Origin: an uncultured delta proteobacterium
GTDB taxonomy: Bacteria > Myxococcota > UBA727 > VGSZ01
NCBI GenBank assembly: GCA_963775425.1
Contig: CAVZJB010000016.1
Span: forward strand, 288,001-352,000
Reading direction: 5' to 3'
Length of the DNA stretch: 64,000 nucleotides
The translations under genes were made by a program, and so were the position numbers. Positions 201 through 10,712 of the stretch are shown in pieces. Position 1 is the first letter of the stretch. Each line of letters starts with the position of its first letter. Under the pieces are notes generated by a model, which was not told the DNA's origin, did no database searches, and saw only the letters and a list, made by a program, of their open reading frames with translations.

Positions 201-477
201 GCGCTCCCGGCGGCGCTCGCGCGGGTGCGCAAGGCGTGCGCGTCCCTGCCCGGCGCCGGGGAGCGCGTCAGCCACAAAGCGCCGCTCCCCCCGGCCGAGG
301 TGACGCGCGTCGAGGCTGATCCCGCGCGCTTCTCCCCGCCCGGCGTCGCGCGCGCCGCCCGAGAGGAAGGCACGCACACGGCGCGGATGCTCGCGCGACG
401 TGCGTTTCGCTCGCGCCGCCGCGCGCGTCGGCACATGGGCGGCGGCGCGCGCCGCGATCCCCCGCGCGCGCCGCCGG

Positions 478-491
478 GGCACAGGGCTTGA
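478..491 (+). promoter_or_regulatory. possible sigma54 (-24/-12) promoter
   Basis: GGCAC-N5-TTGA (consensus GGCAC-N5-TTGC) ending 13 nt before ATG 505. Confidence 0.35.
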
Positions 492-504
492 AGCAGCCCC
501 GGCC

Positions 505-1614
505 ATGAACACACATGTCCTCGCCGCGTCCACGGCGCTCCTCATGTCGTTGCCCGCTGCCGCCGACGTGCGCTCGAGCCAGAGCGTCATCGTCGACAGC
601 GGCGAAACCGTGCGGGGCAACCTCTACGCCGCCGCCGGCAGCGTCATCGTGCACGGCGACGTCGAGGGCGACCTCGTGGCCACGGGCGGGACCATCGTCG
701 TCGACGGCGACGTCCACGGCGACGTCCTCGCGTTCGGAGGCCAGATCACGATCTCCGGCGACGTCGGCGGCGCCGTCCGCGCCGTCGGCGGCCAGATCGC
801 GCTGCTGGGCGCGGTGGGCGGCGACGCCGCTGCCGCCGGCGGCGAGGTCACCATCGAGGGCCGGGTGGGCGGAGACGCCCTCGTCGCCGGCGGCACCAGC
901 CACCTGGTCGGCGCCGTCGACGGGCGCGTCTACGTCGCGGGCGGCGAGATGGACGTCGAGGGCCCCGTGGGGCGCGGCGTGCTCGCGCGCGGCCAGCTCC
1001 TCACCCTCGGGCCCGGCGCGCGCGTCACGGGCGATATCGACGCCACCACCGCGCGGGACATCGAGCGCGCGCCCGGCGCCGTGGTGGGCGGCGAGGTGCA
1101 TCGCGTGCCGCTCGAGGCGCCTGCGCGCTCCGCCGCGGGCGCGGTGTTCGCCTGGATGCAACTGCTCTTCGGCTCGATGATCCTCGGCCTCCTGTGGCTC
1201 TTCGTGTTCCGCAACTTCGCCCAGCGCTCCGTCGGCGTCCTGCGCGAGCAGCCGATCCGCTGTCTCGGGCTCGGCGCCGTCGCCTTCTTCGGCGCGCCCC
1301 TGGTGCTCGCCTTCGTGCTCGCCGCCGGCGTCCTCATCGGCGGCTGGTGGCTCGCGTTCATGGGGGCGTCCGTCTACTCCATCGCCGTCGCGCTCACGTT
1401 CCCGCTCGTCGCGCTCCTGCTCGGCCGGCTCGCGTTCCACGCCCTGAAGATCTCCGCGGGCGCGGACTGGCTGCCGATGATCCTCGCGCTCTTCGTGCTG
1501 CTCCTCGTGGCCGCCATCCCCGTCGTGGGCGTGCTCGTCGCGCTCGCGACCATCGTGTTCGGGCTCGGCGCCATCTCCATCGCGTTGGCGGGCACCTTGG
1601 CGCGCACGCGCTGA
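505..1614 (+). CDS. bactofilin-like (polymer-forming) beta-helix repeat protein with C-terminal multi-pass membrane domain
   Basis: Signal peptide, many G.V.GD...GG.I.I.G repeats, then ~5 hydrophobic helices; ATG at 505. Confidence 0.75.
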   Translation: MNTHVLAASTALLMSLPAAADVRSSQSVIVDSGETVRGNLYAAAGSVIVHGDVEGDLVATGGTIVVDGDVHGDVLAFGGQITISGDVGGAVRAVGGQIALLGAVGGDAAAAGGEVTIEGRVGGDALVAGGTSHLVGAVDGRVYVAGGEMDVEGPVGRGVLARGQLLTLGPGARVTGDIDATTARDIERAPGAVVGGEVHRVPLEAPARSAAGAVFAWMQLLFGSMILGLLWLFVFRNFAQRSVGVLREQPIRCLGLGAVAFFGAPLVLAFVLAAGVLIGGWWLAFMGASVYSIAVALTFPLVALLLGRLAFHALKISAGADWLPMILALFVLLLVAAIPVVGVLVALATIVFGLGAISIALAGTLARTR

Positions 1615-1654: not shown

Positions 1655-2446
1655 CTATCGGTGTTTCCAGGGCGCGGCGACGCCGAGGACGTTCGGGATC
1701 GGCCACTGCGCGCGGTTGTCGTCGGACTCGCGAAAGCCGGTCTCGTAGCTGCCGCAGAGGTCGAGGTCGACGCCGGGGACGTGGATGGAGAGGCTGGCCT
1801 CGGGGCCGCCCTCCATGTGCATCGCGCGCACGACGCCGAGCCCCGACGCGAGGACGCGCGCGTTCCACTGGGCCATCGAAAACGGCGCGCGGGAAAACAG
1901 GAACAGCACGCGGCCCTCGCCGTCGACGGCGACGGCGGCCTCGCTCCACTTGCGGCCGTTCTCGCTCCACACACCCTTGCCGGCGCCGATGAGCCGGAGG
2001 TTCTGAACGACGACGGGCGCGCCGTCGAACGAGGGGCAGCGCGCGCCGCAGTCGGCCATCGTGGCGGACTTGTCGTCGACGGCGAGGACGCTCTTGTACG
2101 CGCGCTTCCAGGCTGGCTGGAGCACGCGGCCGCCGGCGCGGAAGTAGCCCTCGTGGCTGGACATGTCCTCGAGGGCGAACATGCCGGCGTTGATGACGAC
2201 GGAGAGGTGCTTGTCCTTCGCCCACTGCCCGGCGGTGCGGCTCCTCCCGTCCTCTGCGGCGGCGGCGGCGGCGACGACGTGGGCGACCGCGGGATCGATG
2301 CGGACCGCGTGGAGCATCTCGCCAGCGCCGATGTCGACGACGGCGAGCTCGACGCCGGGGGCGATGACCCGGAACGCGGGCGTTCGCTCGTGGGCCGCCG
2401 CCGGAGGCGCCGTGGCGATGGCCGCGAGGAGGGCGAGGGCGAGCAT
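1655..2446 (-). CDS. phosphodiester glycosidase (NAGPA-like) family secreted protein
   Basis: Signal peptide MLALALLAA; VINAGMF and MHMEGGPEASL motifs; C-terminal PIPNVLGV. Confidence 0.75.
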   Translation of the reverse strand: MLALALLAAIATAPPAAAHERTPAFRVIAPGVELAVVDIGAGEMLHAVRIDPAVAHVVAAAAAAEDGRSRTAGQWAKDKHLSVVINAGMFALEDMSSHEGYFRAGGRVLQPAWKRAYKSVLAVDDKSATMADCGARCPSFDGAPVVVQNLRLIGAGKGVWSENGRKWSEAAVAVDGEGRVLFLFSRAPFSMAQWNARVLASGLGVVRAMHMEGGPEASLSIHVPGVDLDLCGSYETGFRESDDNRAQWPIPNVLGVAAPWKHR

Positions 2447-2499
2447 GTCCAGGAGACACGCGGGCGGCGCCGCTTGTTCCCGGCCGGCGCGCGCCGACG

Positions 2500-3249
2500 T
2501 CACCGGCCTGCGGCGAGGGCGTACACGCCAAGCGCGTCGAGGCGCGCCACCGACGCCCGGCGGGAGGCGCGCCAGTCGGGGCCGTAGCTCGGGAACAGCG
2601 CCGCGTCGTACGGCGGCGGTGCGCCGTCGGGGAAGATGTCCGCGAAGTAGGCGCGCACCGCGGCGATCCCGTCGGCGTCGTCGCGCGGATCGCTCACGAA
2701 GTCCGCGCGCCACTGCCGGCGCACGCCGCCGCCGGCGCTCGCGTGGCGGAGGTGCTCGTCGAACAGGATGACGTCGCCGGGCGTGGTCGGGAGCGAGACC
2801 CAGTCTGCCGGCGCGGCGCGGTGGGAGCCGGGGAGGACGCGCAGCGCGCCCGAGGTGTCGTCGAGCGGCTCGAGGTACGCGGCCACGCCGACGCTCGCCA
2901 CCGGACGAACGCTGTCGACGTGCGCCGGGGTGTCGCCCGTGTATCGCACGCCCTTGGCGCGCGTGGGGACGACGGGCCCGCCGAGGAGCGCCGCGGCGAC
3001 GGGCTCGAGCGCGTCGAGGAGCGCGAGGCTGCGCGGCGTCCGCGCGCACATCATCGGCACGTACGCGACCTGCACCGCGCCGCCCTCGACGGCGGCGGCG
3101 AACGCGCCCGCGCACCCCGCGTCGAGCGCGGCGTCGACCTCCTCGGCGAGCGCACGCGCGTCGAAGAACCCGCGCAGCACCGTCAGCCCGCGCGCGTGGA
3201 AGGACTCGACGTCGAGCATCGGGGACGAGAGCGCCGCTGGCGTTGACAC
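2500..3249 (-). CDS. phytanoyl-CoA dioxygenase (PhyH) family Fe(II)/2-oxoglutarate dioxygenase
   Basis: FHARGLTVLRGFF start, HxD (HVD), GALRVLPGSH, PGDVILF..LRH motifs; start may instead be 3219. Confidence 0.8.
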   Translation of the reverse strand: MSTPAALSSPMLDVESFHARGLTVLRGFFDARALAEEVDAALDAGCAGAFAAAVEGGAVQVAYVPMMCARTPRSLALLDALEPVAAALLGGPVVPTRAKGVRYTGDTPAHVDSVRPVASVGVAAYLEPLDDTSGALRVLPGSHRAAPADWVSLPTTPGDVILFDEHLRHASAGGGVRRQWRADFVSDPRDDADGIAAVRAYFADIFPDGAPPPYDAALFPSYGPDWRASRRASVARLDALGVYALAAGR

Positions 3250-3267
3250 GACGACGACCGGCGGCGG

Positions 3268-3606
3268 TTACGCGGTGCGGAGGAGCGCGACCGCGTCCAT
3301 CAGGTGGGCGATGGCCGCCACGTCGCCGGCGAGGTGCAGGCGCCTGGTCACGATGCCGTCGTCGGCGCTCATGCGGCCCTCGACGAGGGCCATGAAGTCG
3401 CGCTCCGCGGCGCGCACGATGACCTTGGGCTGCGCCGGCGACGGCCCCGCGGTCACCGTGCGGGCGCCGAAGTCGACGACCCAGGTGCCTCCCTCGGCGC
3501 CGGCGATCTCGAAGAGCACCGGCCCCGCGATGTCGACGGACGCCGACTGCACCAGCGCCGGCACCGCGGTCTCGAACAGCTCTTTGGTCGTTTGCGTGTA
3601 CGGCAT
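3268..3606 (-). CDS. SCP2 sterol/lipid-binding domain protein
   Basis: FEIAGAEGGTWVVD...DFMALVEG...RLHLAGD is a typical SCP2 pattern; 112 aa. Confidence 0.85.
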   Translation of the reverse strand: MPYTQTTKELFETAVPALVQSASVDIAGPVLFEIAGAEGGTWVVDFGARTVTAGPSPAQPKVIVRAAERDFMALVEGRMSADDGIVTRRLHLAGDVAAIAHLMDAVALLRTA

Positions 3607-3620
3607 GGTTCCATCCGAAG

Positions 3621-3641
3621 CGGGGGCGAGCCCCGCCCTAC
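3621..3641 (-). repeat. GTAG REP-like palindrome
   Basis: Minus strand GTAGGGCGGGGCTCGCCCCCG; its TAG is the stop codon of the dikinase gene. Confidence 0.65.
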
Positions 3642-6600
3642 TTGTCCATCAAGATGACGCGGGCCTGGACGATGCGCCACTCCCCGTTTTGCCGGGCGAC
3701 CTCCATGTCGACGGCGTAGCCCTTGCCCGGCTCGACGACGTCATGGAAGAACTTCTCGGTCTCGAGCACGATCTCGCGCAGCTTCTGCATGTCCGCGTCG
3801 GACACCGGGACGCCGCCCACCGTGACCGAGGCGTCGACGTCGGCGGGCGTGCCGTCGACGTGGTTCACCTCGGCCCCGCCCTGCTTGATGACGCCCTCGG
3901 TGGCCTTGCCGCCATCGACGCCGCCGCCGAAGCCCTTCACGAGCTGGAACGTGACCTGGTTGCGGGCGCCGTTTTCGACGTTGCGCGAGATCATCACGCC
4001 GGAGATGTCCGGCGTCATGCACGCCTGCACCACCACGGTGGGCCCGATGTGCTTCAGGAAGAACTGCTCGGCCGCGTTGTTCTCGACGGGCTCGGGCATC
4101 CACGTGGACTCGACGACACCGATGGCCGCCTTCACGCGCGCCGGACCCATGAACGCGTTGTGCGCCTCGAGCGCCTTCTTGAGCGCGGCGGGGTCGCCGC
4201 TGTGGCGCGCCGCGTCCAGCTTGGCGAACTCCGCGTCGACCTTGTCCTTGCCGAGCATCTCGTTGGCGATCTTGCGATCGACGTAGCTCTCGTACTGGCC
4301 GGCGCCGCTCTTCCCGGGCCTGTCCTCGCCGGTGAAGCTAGAGCGGAAGATGATGGACCCCGTCTCCGCCTCCGACAGCGCGGGGTTCTTCATGATGTTC
4401 TTGTAGAGGGCCTCGCCCTGCGGCGTGAGCTTGCCCGACGCGGAGTCGATCAGGCTCCTCGTCAAGCCCTCGCGCGTCACCTTCTGGAGCTCTTCCCGCG
4501 TGCGCTTGCGGTAGCGCGGGTTCGTGTAGAACTCGCTCTGCAGGAAGTTCCTGTCGTCGACGACACCGACCTTGGGATCCTTGTCCCAGACGTCGTCCCA
4601 GGCCTGCTCGAGGGTGCGCCCGTCGACGAGCTTGGCGCCGCGCAACATGTCGCGGATGTCGCCGGGCGTGATCTCGCTGCCCTTGGGGACGTACTTGCCG
4701 AGCACCGGGTGCTGCGACAGGAGCGCGAGCACCGTGCCCTTCTCGCCCGCGAGGTGGCGCGCGCGCACACCGAGCTTGGCGAGCTCCTCGAACGTGGGCA
4801 CGCCGCGACCGATGCCCTTCACCTGCTCCTCGGGGATGTACAGCTCCACCTCACGCGTCTTGCGCTGCGCGTTGATGATGGCGTCGTGCTTGGCGGCCAC
4901 GGCGAAGGACTCGCCGTCGCTGGTGGGCTTGAGGTACGTGATCTTGCGGTTGACGCCGGGGCGCAGCTTGTCGAGCGCCTCCTGGGTGTTCCCGACGCGG
5001 CCCTCTTCGCGCGCCTTGTCGAGCGTCATCATCACGAAGCCGTCGCCGCTGTCGTCGACGTAGAGGCCGCCCTCCTTCTGCGCGTTCTTGAACAGCTCGG
5101 CGTATTTGGTGCGCAGCTCGGGCAACGCCACCACGGGGATGCCGTTGTTCATCGCGTACATGTTCAGGTGGCTGTTGCCGCCCGGGGCCTGCTCGGTGTC
5201 GACGAAGAGGCCGCCGACGGCGACCATCTTCTTCTCCTCCAGGTGATAGAGCACCGCGAGCTGGTCCTTGCTCGTGCCCATGGCTGCGAGGTCCTTGCCG
5301 TTCTCCGCCGTCACCACCGAGGTGAACACCACGGGGCCGATGCCGTTCAACACGCGCATGCCCTCGACGTTCTCCACCTTCCTCGGCCCGATCTTTTCGT
5401 GAAGCCCGACGCGCATGCCCTTCTCGGCGAGCGCGGTGGCGTAGTGAAGCGGCGACTGCTTGATGAACTGATCGATGAACTCCGGGTCGATCTGCATGCC
5501 GCCGCGGGCCACCTCGGCGGCGCGCTCGTCGGCGAAGGCGCGGATGTTCTGCACCACTTCGCGCACGGCGACGTACGCCGTGGACATGGCCTTGCGGTAG
5601 TCGTCCTCGCTGCACTTGCCCTTGGCGAGCAGCGCGTCGACGCCGGCGAGCGCCTTTTGCAGCCCGCCGGCGGGGGCGGCGGCGGCGTCGGCGTCGGAGC
5701 GGATGTCGCCGAGGCCGCTGGCGACGGCGGAGCGCAGCGCGGTCTGGAGCGCCAGGAGGCACTCGGCCTTGTCGCCGTCGGTCTTGAGGGTGCCGACGCG
5801 GTCGACGGCGGCGCCCAGGTGCTCGTTGGTGAGCCGCAGGAGCTGCGCGTCGAGCTTGATCATCTCGTGGCGCTCGAACCCGCTCTTGGCCTGGTAGATG
5901 GCGTCCTTGAGCGCGAGCCGCGCCTCACCGAGCTCGCGCAGGGTGCCCTTGTCGTTCTTGGCGTCCAGGGCCGCGATGACGTCGGCGACCTCGGTGTAGG
6001 CGGGGCCGGCGCGGAAGAGGTCGTGCTCGAGGGTCGCCGCCGTGGGTTGGCCGGCGCAGACGGCGACGTAGGTGCGCGCCGCCATCTCGATGTTGGCCTC
6101 GACGTTGTGGCCGAGGTCCTTGGTGCACGTCCCCTTGAGCAGATCGCGCAGGCCGTCGGCGAGCGCGGGGAGCTGTTCGGGCTTGTTGCTCCCGGCCGAC
6201 AGCGCCTCGAGGCCTTCGGCGAGCTTCTTGCCCGAAGCGTCGCCCGTCTTGAGCGCGGCCGTGGCGAACGCGAGGGCCTTGCCCGCCTGCTCGCCGTCCC
6301 CCTTGCGCGCCGCCCCCATCGCGCTCGTGAGCGCCGTGAAGATCGTGCAGCGCTTGTCCCGCGGCCCGACGGGGAACATCCACTCCTCGATGAAGAGCTG
6401 GATGTTCCTCGGCGTATCGCGCGAGAAGTTGTGGTGGATGGAGGAGTACGGCGACGCGGTGGCGCCCGGCGGCTTCTCCTTCCACACCCACTTCGTGGGG
6501 CTGCCGTACGACGTCTCGCGCTCGGCGGTGCGGCCCTGGTCCGTGAGGATGGACGAGATGGCGTTGCGGGCCTCGAAGATGCCGTTGGTGGACGAGATGG

Positions 6601-7408
6601 GGTGCGAGGAGATGAGCTCGCGCAGCAGGGCGTAGTCGCGGCCGCTCTGGGCGTCGCCCTTGGTGAGGTCCACGCCGGACAGGAGCACGTGCTGCTCCGC
6701 GAGGATGGCGAGGCCGAAGCGGTCGATGCGGGTGGTCCAGCCGTCCTCGCGCTGGTTGGCGACGTCGGTGCGGGCGCGGAACTGCAGGAGCGCGTCCATC
6801 ATGGCGTCGTCGCGCAGCGCGCCGTTGGGGATGAGCCCGAGGCCGACCACGGACATGTCGGACACGTCGAAGAAGTGGGAGGTGCCGGCGACGAGGTCCT
6901 CGGCCCGCTTCTTCTGCTTGGTGACGCGCCCCTCGTACTCGCGCTGGAGGATGTCGGCGGTGACGGTGTTGTTGTTGAACGGCTTGTACCAGTCGAACTG
7001 GCCGGCGCCCTCGAGCGTGTACTCCTTCTCGTCGGTGGCCCGGAGGAAGTCGATGTCCTTGCCCACCTCGTCGGAGATCTTGCGCAGCGTGGCCTCATCC
7101 ACCGCGAAGCCGCTCTTGTCCGCGATCAGGGTGGAGACGGCGCTGCGGCGCTCGGTGACGGCCGGATCGCCCTTGCCACGGCCCTCGAGGCCCATCTTGC
7201 CGTCGCGATCCTTGTGCTGCGTGACCACGTCGATGAGCTTCTGCGCGGCCGTCCGCGCCGCCGCGTCGCGCTCGGCCGCGGGGACGGCGGCGGGCGGGGT
7301 CACGTCGATGGTGGCGGGCGTCTCGGAGGTCGCCGGCTTGTCGGTCCCCGTGGGCTTGTCGGGGGTCTGCGGCACCTGCGGCCGGAAGCGGTCGTTGATC
7401 GTGGGCAT
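3638..7408 (-). CDS. large PEP/pyruvate-binding (PPDK_N ATP-grasp) plus phospho-histidine domain dikinase, ~1256 aa
   Basis: GGNSHLNMYAMNNGIPVV His-swivel motif; C-terminal GEKG, RSSFTGEDRPGKSGAGQYES, VVQ..SGV, DME, IVQAR motifs; ATG 7408 preceded by AGGA. Confidence 0.85.
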   Translation of the reverse strand: MPTINDRFRPQVPQTPDKPTGTDKPATSETPATIDVTPPAAVPAAERDAAARTAAQKLIDVVTQHKDRDGKMGLEGRGKGDPAVTERRSAVSTLIADKSGFAVDEATLRKISDEVGKDIDFLRATDEKEYTLEGAGQFDWYKPFNNNTVTADILQREYEGRVTKQKKRAEDLVAGTSHFFDVSDMSVVGLGLIPNGALRDDAMMDALLQFRARTDVANQREDGWTTRIDRFGLAILAEQHVLLSGVDLTKGDAQSGRDYALLRELISSHPISSTNGIFEARNAISSILTDQGRTAERETSYGSPTKWVWKEKPPGATASPYSSIHHNFSRDTPRNIQLFIEEWMFPVGPRDKRCTIFTALTSAMGAARKGDGEQAGKALAFATAALKTGDASGKKLAEGLEALSAGSNKPEQLPALADGLRDLLKGTCTKDLGHNVEANIEMAARTYVAVCAGQPTAATLEHDLFRAGPAYTEVADVIAALDAKNDKGTLRELGEARLALKDAIYQAKSGFERHEMIKLDAQLLRLTNEHLGAAVDRVGTLKTDGDKAECLLALQTALRSAVASGLGDIRSDADAAAAPAGGLQKALAGVDALLAKGKCSEDDYRKAMSTAYVAVREVVQNIRAFADERAAEVARGGMQIDPEFIDQFIKQSPLHYATALAEKGMRVGLHEKIGPRKVENVEGMRVLNGIGPVVFTSVVTAENGKDLAAMGTSKDQLAVLYHLEEKKMVAVGGLFVDTEQAPGGNSHLNMYAMNNGIPVVALPELRTKYAELFKNAQKEGGLYVDDSGDGFVMMTLDKAREEGRVGNTQEALDKLRPGVNRKITYLKPTSDGESFAVAAKHDAIINAQRKTREVELYIPEEQVKGIGRGVPTFEELAKLGVRARHLAGEKGTVLALLSQHPVLGKYVPKGSEITPGDIRDMLRGAKLVDGRTLEQAWDDVWDKDPKVGVVDDRNFLQSEFYTNPRYRKRTREELQKVTREGLTRSLIDSASGKLTPQGEALYKNIMKNPALSEAETGSIIFRSSFTGEDRPGKSGAGQYESYVDRKIANEMLGKDKVDAEFAKLDAARHSGDPAALKKALEAHNAFMGPARVKAAIGVVESTWMPEPVENNAAEQFFLKHIGPTVVVQACMTPDISGVMISRNVENGARNQVTFQLVKGFGGGVDGGKATEGVIKQGGAEVNHVDGTPADVDASVTVGGVPVSDADMQKLREIVLETEKFFHDVVEPGKGYAVDMEVARQNGEWRIVQARVILMDK

Positions 7409-7494
7409 GGTCCTGGATTTATCAGGAACTTTGCCGATTTGGCCGTGCGCCAAACACGCCCCGGGCGGGATAGAACGAGGGCCGGAGGTTCCAG

Positions 7495-7719
7495 ATGGAC
7501 TGGGAGAAGAAGTGTGGCGTGTGGACGGTGCACTCGGAGCGCGAGAGCCACCCGACCCTGCGCGGCTTCGCCAGGAGCAAGGGCGAGGCGGAGACCCTGA
7601 TGAACAAGCTCAAGGGCGGTGACGCCGACGCCGGCATCACGGAGTACTGGGTCCTCGAAATCACCAACGGCGAGCTCGACGACTTCCGCCAATTCGGAAT
7701 GCTTCCCCCGGGGTTCTAA
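7495..7719 (+). CDS. small hypothetical protein, 74 aa
   Basis: GGAGG RBS, GC3-biased codons, stop 3 nt before the next ATG. Confidence 0.75.
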   Translation: MDWEKKCGVWTVHSERESHPTLRGFARSKGEAETLMNKLKGGDADAGITEYWVLEITNGELDDFRQFGMLPPGF

Positions 7720-7722
7720 ACC

Positions 7723-9414
7723 ATGCCGCGCATCCAAAAGCCCGCTCTCCAGACCATGTACGACAAGCTGACCCGCTCACCGGGCCAGCGGCTCGACCTC
7801 GACGAGCTGGTCTCCATCGTCGGCGACAAGAAGGTCCTCGGCTTCACCACCACCACCTCGGCGGCCGTGGCACGCACGCTCGAGAGGGGCAATCTCAGCG
7901 CCGCCGAGAAGCTCGAGCTCGCCAAGGCCGGCCTGGACGAGGGCGAGAAGGCGGACCTGAGGGAGCTGTTGAACGACGACGCGTTCAAAAAGACGCTCGA
8001 CCCGGCCGCCACCAACTTCCTCCGCGCCCTCCTCGGCCTCGAGGCGCTCGCGCACACCCCGTCGGGCGGCCCGGCGTCCGGCGGCGCCGCGGACGTCCAC
8101 AAGGCGCCCGAGATCGTCGCCGACAAGAACGCGCCCGAGGTCATCGCGGCCACCAAGCTGCGCGAGCTCATCAAGAGCGGCGACCTGCAGAAGTACTACG
8201 ACGCGTCCATCGGCGCCGTCGACGACCCCGCGCTGAAGGCGGAGGCGGAGGCGCTGTTCAAGCAGCTCCCCGTCGTGAAGCCCGGCATGGCGGCGACGGA
8301 CTTCGTGAAGGCCGGCCTGTGGGCCAAGGCGCCGCAGGGCATCGAGGAGATGCAGAAGTCTGCGCGCTACCTTCCGGGCCGCCAGGTCCTCGTGGAGACC
8401 ACCTGCTACGCCAAGGTCCCCGCGCGCAGCGACGTCACCTACGAGACCCAGCGCAAGAAGATCGGCTCCTACGACCCCAACGGCAAGCTGGCCGTCACCT
8501 ACCGCGCCACCCTCGTGGGCGCCGACCCCAACAACGACAAGAACTTCCTCGTGAAGGTCGACGGCTCCGACAAGCCCATCTCGGTGACGAAGGCGAGCAT
8601 CTTCGAGCACAACCAGCCGCACGAGCTGGGCAAGGAGTACATCAAGTCCGACACGCACCGCGAGCTCCCCTACAACTGGACCACGTGGGACATGGACTAC
8701 GCGTCGCCGCTGGCGCGCGCGAAGCTGTGCGAGGTCGCCATCAAGATGGACGAGCTCGTGGGCAAGCTGGACTTCAGCAAGCAGAAGACCGAGGGCGGCA
8801 GCGGCATCAACGTCTTCGGCCGCGGCGACGTGGCGCAGAAGATGGTGGACCTGCAGAAGAAGTGCGTGGAGACCGTCTTCCGCTCCATCAACATGAAGTA
8901 CCCGCGTGAGGACGGCCGGCCCTTCGACGACCCCGGCCGCGCTCCCCAGGGCAACCGCGACGTCGCGCGCCAGGCCATCAAGGGCACGGGCATGTGCGTG
9001 CAGCAGTCCACCGTGTTCGGCGGCCTGATGACCCCGTTCATGGAGGTCCTCGGCGTCGACGGGCAGTACCGCTCCGGCAACTGCTACCGCAACATCCGCG
9101 GCGCCACCGACAACGTCTACGCGCCCGACTACGCGTCCGGCCACGGCTGGTGGCAGATCACGTTCCGCCCCTCGATGGACATGACGGTCACGGACAGGAC
9201 GTGGAACCAGGTCAACCTGGACCTCGACCGCGCCTACGGCTTCCCCTACGGCGACCGCTACGCCAACAAGAACATCACCGGCTTTCACCCCAAAAAACCG
9301 AGCGCCACCGACGTCAACGTCACCGGCGACGTCACGGTGGAGACGGTGGAGAGACAGTTCTCCCACGCCGGCGACGGCCGCGAGAACCACATCAGCCACA
9401 GCCAGGATCCCTGA
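7723..9414 (+). CDS. hypothetical protein with C-terminal transglutaminase-like Cys-His-Asp domain
   Basis: GTGMC(425)VQQS...LG...GH(474)GWWQI...TD(491)RTW spacing fits the transglutaminase-like catalytic triad. Confidence 0.7.
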   Translation: MPRIQKPALQTMYDKLTRSPGQRLDLDELVSIVGDKKVLGFTTTTSAAVARTLERGNLSAAEKLELAKAGLDEGEKADLRELLNDDAFKKTLDPAATNFLRALLGLEALAHTPSGGPASGGAADVHKAPEIVADKNAPEVIAATKLRELIKSGDLQKYYDASIGAVDDPALKAEAEALFKQLPVVKPGMAATDFVKAGLWAKAPQGIEEMQKSARYLPGRQVLVETTCYAKVPARSDVTYETQRKKIGSYDPNGKLAVTYRATLVGADPNNDKNFLVKVDGSDKPISVTKASIFEHNQPHELGKEYIKSDTHRELPYNWTTWDMDYASPLARAKLCEVAIKMDELVGKLDFSKQKTEGGSGINVFGRGDVAQKMVDLQKKCVETVFRSINMKYPREDGRPFDDPGRAPQGNRDVARQAIKGTGMCVQQSTVFGGLMTPFMEVLGVDGQYRSGNCYRNIRGATDNVYAPDYASGHGWWQITFRPSMDMTVTDRTWNQVNLDLDRAYGFPYGDRYANKNITGFHPKKPSATDVNVTGDVTVETVERQFSHAGDGRENHISHSQDP

Positions 9415-10025: not shown

Positions 10026-10712
10026 GTGGACGCCGGCGCGTATCGCGCGCTCCTGCTGCAGGGGCGCTGGTTCTCGGGGATCCCGGAGGCCTTCCAGGAG
10101 GCGCTCCTCGCGCGCGCGGTGGTCCGCGATTTCGCTTCGGGGGAGCGGCTGTTCTCGCGGGGGGACCCGCCCGGCGGCATCTACGCCGTCGTCGACGGCA
10201 TCGTCCGCATCACGGCGAGCACCGACGCGGGCAAGGAGGCGCTCCTCACGCTCCAGGAGCCGCCGGCGTGGTTCGGCGAAATCGCGGTGTTCGACGGCCA
10301 GGCCCGCACCCACGACGGCGTCGCCGACGGCGCCGCCCGCGTGCTCCACGTGCCCCAGGCCGCGATGGACGCGATCCTCTCCGCGCAGCCCGTGTGGTGG
10401 CGGGACCTCGCGCTCCTCGTCACCCAGAAGCTCCGGCTCATGTTCCTCGCGATGGAGGACGTCACCACGCAGCCCCTGCCCGCGCGGCTCGCCCGGCGGC
10501 TGTTGTTGATGGCCGAGGGCTACGGTGACTGGCACGCGCGAAAGCTGCGCGCCCTCGACGTCAAGCAGGAGCAGCTCGCGTCCATGCTCTCGACGTCGCG
10601 GCAGTCCGTGAACCAGGCGCTCAAGGACCTCGAGCAAAAGGGCGTCGTGAAGCTCGCCTACGGCCAGGTCGAGATCGTGGACCTCGACGCCCTGCGCGCG
10701 CTCGCGGCTTGA
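10026..10712 (+). CDS. Crp/Fnr family transcriptional regulator
   Basis: cNMP domain (WFGEIAVFDGQARTHD) and HTH (QEQLASMLSTSRQSVNQAL). Confidence 0.92.
   Translation: MDAGAYRALLLQGRWFSGIPEAFQEALLARAVVRDFASGERLFSRGDPPGGIYAVVDGIVRITASTDAGKEALLTLQEPPAWFGEIAVFDGQARTHDGVADGAARVLHVPQAAMDAILSAQPVWWRDLALLVTQKLRLMFLAMEDVTTQPLPARLARRLLLMAEGYGDWHARKLRALDVKQEQLASMLSTSRQSVNQALKDLEQKGVVKLAYGQVEIVDLDALRALAA

Follow-up and report, generated by a model that had tools for sequence, protein, structure and literature searches.

This study was concerned with a dikinase gene in a stretch of 64,000 nucleotides (the window) from contig CAVZJB010000016.1 of an uncultured delta proteobacterium of the Myxococcota. The encoded protein, so far uncharacterised, very probably belongs to the swivel-histidine dikinase superfamily and has a new presumed acceptor domain. 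It is highly likely to act as an ATP-dependent swivel-His phosphotransferase whose acceptor is not pyruvate. The gene belongs to a conserved four-gene module, newly recognized here, which consists of the dikinase, an SCP2 protein, a protein of 563 amino acids (aa) and a protein of 74 aa. A preliminary description of this DNA left the acceptor as a glycan, a lipid, an antibiotic or a protein, and the gene context narrows this list towards a hydrophobic ligand or a protein.

Domains and invariant residues of the dikinase

The preliminary description placed a swivel histidine, His747, in a GGNSH motif upstream of the motifs of a complete C-terminal ATP-grasp domain, and both the motifs and their placement were recovered. 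The GGNSH motif starts at residue 743 and is followed by GEKG at 888, RSS at 1022, SGAG at 1034, DME at 1234 and QAR at 1248. All of these motif residues are invariant in 29 homologues with 38-72% identity. His747 lies 115 residues ahead of the start of the ATP-grasp domain (residue 862), in contrast to the ATP-first order of phosphoenolpyruvate (PEP) synthase (PEPS) and PPDK. The pyruvate-binding TIM barrel, which had been described as missing, is indeed absent: PEP-utilizers_C was not detected by Pfam at an expectation value (E) of 1 or less, and the protein ends just past the ATP-grasp domain.

The C-terminal domain was identified by sequence and by structure, in agreement with its earlier assignment as ATP-grasp. 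The only Pfam match in the dikinase is PPDK_N at residues 1013-1250 (E 2.1e-16). An AlphaFold2 model of residues 640-1256, calculated from 46 aligned sequences, has a predicted local distance difference test (pLDDT) score of 91.0 and a predicted template modelling (pTM) score of 0.89. This model matches rifampin phosphotransferase (RPH), PEP synthase, HpeI and PPDK in Foldseek (E down to 3.3e-14), and the ATP-grasp domain is therefore complete. The Lys/Arg/Asp/Glu/Gln/Arg ligand set of PPDK_N-type ATP-grasp domains is present, and the ligand residues are invariant in the 29 homologues. When a family-wide profile was compared with the sequences of the PDB, only the ATP-grasp regions of PEP synthases and RPH were matched, and a PDB search with the whole single dikinase sequence returned no match (best E 0.56). 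The NCBIfam matches are fragmentary, are limited to the PEP synthase and PigC models (PigC E 7e-4) and fall well under the cut-offs. Pfam, AlphaFold2 and Foldseek thus found neither an ordinary PEP synthase structure nor a C-terminus other than ATP-grasp, two of the outcomes that the preliminary description had named as contradicting it.

Several homologues (P0034 at residues 1044-1074, P0032, P0033, P0037 and P0038) carry a 'LysM' label in NCBI and Pfam. The label is due to a partial match, covering 31 of 43 positions (E 1e-5), which sits within a variable insertion of the ATP-grasp domain; the window protein has a helical insertion there (residues about 1042-1095). Targeting to peptidoglycan by LysM was dropped as an explanation because the partial match lies inside this insertion and is not an N-terminal targeting module.

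Residues of about 670-800 are assigned to a mobile phosphohistidine (swivel) domain at the level of sequence profiles, where the earlier claim of a swivel histidine was also upheld. His747 is invariant in all 29 homologues and in 15 of 15 aligned sequences. Alignment of 71 family sequences with 22 PEP-utilizers sequences by hhalign placed His747 on the catalytic His over 70 columns (probability 65.8%, P 5.7e-5). These columns span the entire PEP-utilizers core, and the control with a reversed query gave a P of 0.34 over 12 columns. The set of 71 includes 10 sequences without the APGGNSH motif, some of them from distant subfamilies, and the 22 canonical domains were taken from related genomes. 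A smaller comparison, of 15 family sequences with four canonical domains of the same genome, gave the same register over 28 columns (P 0.0045, probability 7.7%). The distant subfamily members have 'PPGYSHxxVxARxxG', which is nearer the canonical 'GGxTSHAAxVAR'. In the profile alignments the proline of PGGNSH replaces the canonical first glycine without a gap. In addition, His747 opens a helix in the model and is followed by an 'IPVVA' strand, as in the canonical 'GGxTSHAAIVARxxGIPxVV'.

The region ahead of the swivel-like domain was originally described as helical and as an unknown substrate domain of about 700 residues. Its helical nature and the lack of a known relative were borne out by this analysis. 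However, its size is closer to 600 residues, because the helical region stops near residue 660 and the first 56 or so residues are variable. The model of residues 57-700 (pLDDT 88.7) is helical throughout and contains about 29 helices. Sequence and fold searches were empty outside the family. Foldseek gave no PDB match at E<0.1, and VIA-align, in a wide run and a second-look run, gave generic helical-bundle matches only among the best 50 listed per run. The Atlas search gave no usable match. A profile of the domain run against a collection of 5.8 billion proteins, at lengths of 312-1176 aa, found nine matches, all of them family members or fragments. Pfam detected no CBM45 or CBM20 in residues 1-700 at E<=10. 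Ten residues of the domain are invariant down to 25% identity (R87, D118, D205, Q209, R211, R281, H325, S329, R497 and D520), and this set, rich in Arg, His and Asp, would suit a phosphoryl-transfer site. No signal-peptide-like hydrophobic stretch was found in residues 1-56.

In one homologue, P0022 (1724 aa), the match to the dikinase N-terminus lies close to the start and the match to the remainder begins at residue 814, so that P0022 seems to bear an insertion of about 470 residues within the helical domain. The insertion is unrelated to the 563-aa protein, and P0022 was rejected as a fusion with that protein.

The dikinase family is rare and is restricted to the Myxococcota as far as searched. 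Among 1.84 billion representative proteins, phmmer matched 74 at E<=0.001, of which 39 reached E<=1e-30, and a word-indexed search gave 60 dikinase homologues with 37-72% identity. The named homologues and the 14 genomic loci all belong to Myxococcota or to metagenome-assembled genomes labelled 'Deltaproteobacteria'. Of 301 evenly sampled Myxococcota genomes, 23 contained a dikinase match, with a patchy distribution across families. A version with separate components was not found among the 1.84 billion proteins, searched at all lengths, where the shorter matches covered the query in part and were assumed to be contig fragments.

The longest frame for the dikinase, 3638-7453 on the minus strand, has a TTG start and would encode 1271 aa. 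The ATG at 7406-7408 gives 1256 aa, and the 29 aligned homologues share an 'MP' start at this position. The GC content at third codon positions of this frame is 0.95, and the composition of the protein is normal. The window is very GC-rich (0.68-0.77), and therefore long open reading frames (ORFs) occur on either strand. A plus-strand ORF of 1610 aa (2768-7600), which overlaps the dikinase, was rejected as a high-GC shadow.

The conserved four-gene module

Gene context was analyzed by tblastn of the window neighbours against 14 related loci and by clustering of the ORFs of those loci. In 10 of the 14 loci the SCP2 gene immediately follows the dikinase gene, and in the other four the sequence breaks off less than 300 nt past the dikinase stop. 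An SCP2 gene is also present in L026 (33% identity) and lies immediately downstream in L023 and L025 (about 32%), and the neighbours in the latter two score 33.5 and 23.9 bits with Pfam SCP2. The 563-aa and 74-aa genes were not detected near the L023 and L025 dikinases, while the whole module is kept in L026. SCP2 is thus the deepest conserved partner of the dikinase. The most distant dikinase homologues have other neighbours. Beside the dikinase of L024 (G088:C29) there are an FMN-dependent dehydrogenase gene and a divergent, uncharacterised gene of 425 aa, and beside that of L022 (G083:C1) there is an M13 peptidase gene. The 31-nt spacer between the dikinase and SCP2 genes (3607-3637, minus strand) contains a short GC-rich inverted repeat, GGCGGGGC ... 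GCCCCCGC, which could form a hairpin.

The other two genes form a second pair. The 563-aa gene is present in 11 of the 14 loci, and so is the 74-aa gene, which always lies immediately 5' of it. The two pairs of the module occur in four arrangements (divergent, convergent, and tandem with the small pair either first or last), and this variety argues for selection on linkage. A natural fusion, P0039 (2062 aa), also joins the 563-aa protein to the dikinase (40% identity across 422 aa, E 3e-88) and does not contain the 74-aa protein. Ahead of the 563-aa-like part, P0039 has about 500 extra residues (1-512), in which Pfam recognized no family at E<=0.01. On visual inspection, the extra part contains a Cys...His...Asp series ('SRACAIAASDY', 'GHVLVSMD', 'FFDPAFG') and might be a second papain-like domain.

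The 563-aa protein was matched in 27 of the 301 Myxococcota genomes. Nineteen of the matches are strong (E<=3.4e-55), and all 19 of these genomes carry the dikinase; the four genomes that have the dikinase alone contain distant subfamily members. The remaining eight matches are weak and partial and come from genomes without the dikinase (G012, G022, G030, G056, G071, G086, G091 and G115), in frames of 353-505 aa with E from 1e-11 to 1e-20. They cover mainly residues 142-352 of the 563-aa protein, and two of the eight reach about 505-524. This suggests that the part ahead of the Cys/His/Asp core is a domain in its own right, with a wider family.

The 563-aa family contains 62 proteins, none of which is named, and has the pattern 'GxGxCxxQ ... 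HGW ... DRTW', in which Cys425, His474 and Asp491 are invariant. We take this pattern to resemble that of acyl-transfer enzymes of the transglutaminase-like and arylamine N-acetyltransferase-like types. The window protein has no Pfam family at E<=10 and no match in the PDB profile search. Pfam Transglut_core was found weakly in two of 11 family members, at E of at least 0.038. Comparison of the family with transglutaminases by hhalign was also weak (P 0.036 over 37 columns, Cys on Cys, against 0.57 for the reversed control), and the Atlas scores of 0.78-0.79 against transglutaminases serve as leads only. The 74-aa protein has no Pfam family at E<=5. The His of its W-x-x-H motif is kept in 11 of 12 sequences and replaced by Tyr in L026; the invariant residues are P20 and A32 alone. 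Since the His is not invariant, the idea of an HPr-like His acceptor was weakened. None of the four module proteins matched a PADLOC defence model at E<=0.1.

A complex of dikinase residues 57-860 with SCP2 was modelled from separate alignments and scored 0.69 (runs 0.69, 0.67 and 0.75), while the best control scored 0.00. Of 80 solved complexes, 58 reached a score of 0.69, as did two of 110 mismatched pairs. This calibration holds only roughly because our own alignments were fed in. The runs have at least 93% of contacts in common, and the pLDDT of the partner is at least 84. The modelled interface joins residues 574-646 of the dikinase, in the helices just before the swivel domain, to residues 2-4 and 67-89 of SCP2, which include most of its invariant residues. 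The model supports a predicted binding of SCP2 beside the swivel domain.

The features of the dikinase and of the module are collected in Table 1.

Table 1. Positions of the dikinase, its domains and the other module genes in the window
Feature	Position	Strand	Description or basis
Dikinase gene	3638..7408	minus	1256 aa and TAG stop; ORF and translation; protein identical to P0003 of public collection
N-terminal tail, residues 1-56	7241..7408	minus	Pro/Thr-rich, variable; columns unconserved except initial 'MP'
All-helical domain, residues 57-660	5429..7240	minus	presumed acceptor-binding; model
Predicted SCP2 docking surface, residues 574-646	5471..5689	minus	last helices of the N-domain; interface list of the complex model
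Putative phosphohistidine swivel-like domain (about 670-800) and three-stranded beta linker, residues 670-860	4829..5401	minus	hhalign and secondary structure of the model
His747 codon CAC in APGGNSHLNMYAMNNGIP	5168..5170	minus	presumed phospho-carrier; invariant, aligned onto catalytic His
PPDK-type ATP-grasp nucleotide-binding domain, residues 862-1256	3641..4825	minus	complete
SCP2-family protein, 112 aa	3268..3606	minus	starts 31 nt past dikinase stop; Pfam SCP2 E 3.1e-11, 43.9 bits (cut-off 21.3)
74-aa protein with W-x-x-H motif	7495..7719	plus	GGAGG before ATG; directly upstream of 563-aa gene; ORF clustering and tblastn
563-aa protein, candidate transglutaminase/papain-like enzyme	7723..9414	plus	invariant Cys425/His474/Asp491; alignment and tblastn

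The other neighbours in the window (bactofilin-like, NAGPA-like, PhyH, Crp, PfkB and PNP) were not conserved beside the homologues in the 14 loci. A PhyH-type dioxygenase gene (2500-3249, minus strand) begins 18 nt past the stop codon of the SCP2 gene, and within 1655-3115 on the same strand there is a gene whose product has a NAGPA phosphodiester-glycosidase domain; the two genes may extend the operon in this lineage only, or may be unrelated. The module is flanked by a gene for a 404-aa protein (400-1614, plus strand) with a weak bactofilin match (E 1e-5, slightly below the cut-off). On the other side (10026-10712, plus strand) there is a gene for a Crp/Fnr-type regulator that binds cyclic nucleotide monophosphates, which is not conserved in the related loci.

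Proposed mechanism and alternative acceptors

The following mechanism is proposed. ATP would be bound by the C-terminal ATP-grasp domain, and His747, on its small mobile domain, would take over the beta-phosphoryl group, AMP and Pi (or PPi) being released. The swivel domain would then deliver the phosphoryl group to an acceptor site built by the helical N-domain of about 600 aa. The small SCP2 subunit would dock on the final helices of the N-domain, by the swivel hinge. SCP2 would hold or deliver a hydrophobic small molecule, whose hydroxyl (or carboxyl) group would be the acceptor. The 563-aa Cys/His/Asp enzyme and the 74-aa protein would act in the same pathway, before or after the phosphorylation. 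Of this scheme, the identities and order of the domains, the conserved residues and the linkage of the genes were observed directly, while the phosphotransfer chemistry, the modelled SCP2 docking and the kind of acceptor are inferred. We judge the complete proposal, a three-part swivel dikinase with an SCP2 subunit, a hydrophobic acceptor and a shared pathway, to be slightly favoured on balance. A hydrophobic small molecule would be the most likely acceptor in view of the SCP2 docking, and its presentation by SCP2 is suggested tentatively.

Several points weigh against this proposal. First, Pfam found no family at E<=10 in the His region alone, where PEP-utilizers (PF00391) was silent. Likewise, a six-frame PEP-utilizers search of the genome found seven canonical copies elsewhere and none in the dikinase gene, and a His-region profile had no solved relative in the PDB, with chance matches only (best E 0.08, to nitrophorin). 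Secondly, no SCP2 gene is downstream of the dikinase in L022, which has the M13 peptidase instead, or in L024, which has the FMN dehydrogenase (28-30% identity). Third, the score of the complex is a model confidence rather than a measurement. The conserved face of SCP2 coincides with the generic SCP2 motif as well as with the modelled interface, and SCP2 could therefore be a purely structural subunit. The habit of the SCP2 family, moreover, implies a 'hydrophobic ligand' and nothing more specific. Lastly, the fusion and the strict co-occurrence with the Cys/His/Asp protein fit a protein substrate equally.

The main rival is a protein-directed dikinase, which would pass the phosphoryl group to a side chain of the 563-aa enzyme, of its substrate or of the 74-aa protein, in the manner of Enzyme I and HPr, and would use the helical N-domain as a protein-docking platform. 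Transglutaminase/papain-like enzymes mostly act on proteins, which counts for this explanation, as do P0039, the co-occurrence in 19 of 19 genomes, the W-x-x-H of the 74-aa protein in 11 of 12 sequences and the four-helix bundles within the N-domain. However, this His is Tyr in L026, only P20 and A32 being invariant, and it is SCP2 rather than the 563-aa protein that persists beside the homologues of about 32% identity. In addition, none of GWD1, RPH, HpeHI, PEPS and PPDK phosphorylates a separate protein according to the portions of the sources used. A protein acceptor is considered unlikely.

An activation-and-transfer enzyme is rated as improbable. In this explanation the dikinase would phosphorylate a lipid-like molecule at a carboxyl or carbonyl group (compare PigC/HapC, which activate an aldehyde), and the Cys enzyme would pass the activated group to an amine or to the 74-aa protein. 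The slight NCBIfam similarity to PigC (E 7e-4), the invariant Cys425/His474/Asp491 and the SCP2 partner are consistent with it. However, these points are habits of the families concerned, and the 563-aa protein resembles Transglut_core only weakly by both measures (two of 11 members, with E of 0.038 or more; 37 columns with P 0.036 in hhalign).

A bacterial glucan or polysaccharide dikinase, analogous to GWD/PWD and acting on glycogen, exopolysaccharide or the cell wall, would account for the GWD1-like domain order with a helical domain directly before the His domain (available portion of PMC13553574), and the partial LysM match of some homologues (E 1e-5) could be read in the same way. However, Pfam found no carbohydrate-binding module at E<=1, CBM45 and CBM20 included, and the LysM match is a 31-residue piece of a variable ATP-grasp insertion. 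The conserved neighbours are SCP2 and the Cys/His/Asp protein, not glycan enzymes, and the downstream NAGPA-like gene is not conserved in related loci. A glycan acceptor is accordingly regarded as decidedly improbable.

A kinase that inactivates antibiotics or xenobiotics, of the rifampin phosphotransferase or phenol-kinase type, is held to be very improbable. The N-domain had no match to the RIF-binding domain, although RPH was in the library (Foldseek at E<0.1; best 50 VIA-align matches listed in each of two runs), and the domain order is unlike that of RPH. The strict four-gene module and the vertical-looking, patchy spread within a single phylum are atypical for resistance genes. Finally, an ordinary PEP synthase or PPDK with rearranged or mis-called domains can practically be dismissed, and was already refuted by the missing barrel: the NCBI name 'PEP/pyruvate-binding domain-containing protein' of some homologues and the partial matches to PEP synthase models would favour it, but the matches reach 27 bits against cut-offs of 598-883 bits, the chain ends six residues past QAR, and the seven canonical PEP-utilizers matches of the genome are in separate proteins.

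Relation to characterised dikinases and significance

Swivel-histidine dikinases are few, and each characterised one opened up its own area of biochemistry, these areas being gluconeogenesis, C4 photosynthesis, starch turnover, rifampin resistance, prodigiosin synthesis and phenol catabolism. Compared with PEPS and PPDK, the dikinase of this study lacks the TIM barrel, has the His and ATP domains in reversed order and carries Asn where those enzymes have the regulatory Thr ahead of the His. RPH (RPH-Lm; 5HV1, 5FBS) has the ATP-grasp first and the swivel last, and the N-domain of the dikinase had no match to its RIF-binding domain, which does not prove a different fold. A small SCP2 protein is also accessory to a soluble enzyme in the case of UbiJ/UbiT in ubiquinone synthesis, and this likeness would fit the presentation of a hydrophobic substrate. 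Unlike UbiJ/UbiT, however, the SCP2 protein of the module has no link to quinone genes that we could see. Literature searches on SCP2 with dikinases or phosphohistidine found no paper joining them.

In GWD1, two CBM45 modules are followed by a central domain of 20 helices, a His domain and an ATP-binding domain, and the central domain has no PDB equivalent beyond a four-helix bundle, as described in the available portion of PMC13553574. By the same account, GWD1 and PWD share with the dikinase the series of acceptor-side domains, His domain and C-terminal PPDK-type ATP domain as well as the absence of a PEP/pyruvate barrel. A large all-helical domain lies directly before the His domain in GWD1 (PMC13553574, the same portion), as it does in the dikinase, whose helical domain had no Foldseek match in the PDB at E<0.1. 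The differences are that the dikinase has no CBM45 or CBM20, has SCP2 and the Cys/His/Asp protein as partners and occurs in Myxococcota only as far as searched. The GWD1 central domain (9HA9/9QVI) was not matched among the listed Foldseek and VIA-align matches or in the PDB profile search, the presence of these entries in the libraries being unconfirmed.

The preliminary description had regarded the order of acceptor domain, His domain and ATP domain as that of GWD/PWD. The match to GWD1 stands, but the order is not exclusive to these enzymes. The two-component bacterial dikinases HpeHI, PpsAB and CreHI have the acceptor domain and the swivel on one protein and the ATP-grasp on another (as given in part of PMC12167813), and the His-then-ATP order is therefore not peculiar to plants. 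In contrast to these, the dikinase is a single polypeptide of 1256 aa, and its acceptor domain appears unrelated to theirs; HpeH resembles the RIF-binding domain of RPH. The loop before the His also differs, being PGGNSH in the dikinase as against GG and three residues before the His in the motif of the same part of PMC12167813.

These results have several implications. First, the 'plant' domain order is found here in a bacterial single polypeptide, which bears on how enzymes of the GWD type were assembled. Secondly, the module offers an experimental handle, with four soluble proteins of small to large size, a catalytic His and Cys that can be mutated and a carrier whose ligand could reveal the substrate. 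Third, the four genes may, as a rather remote prospect, encode an ATP-driven machine for the activation and transfer of a lipid or hydrophobic metabolite, in which SCP2 would hand over the molecule, the His would phosphorylate it and the Cys enzyme would use it to modify an amine or the 74-aa protein. If true, such a machine would provide a new way to a phospholipid-like signal or to protein lipidation in predatory, developmentally complex bacteria. Lastly, the dikinase combines a new acceptor domain with a dedicated SCP2 and a strictly co-inherited Cys/His/Asp enzyme, so the family very probably makes a phosphorylated product that has not yet been sought in the Myxococcota.

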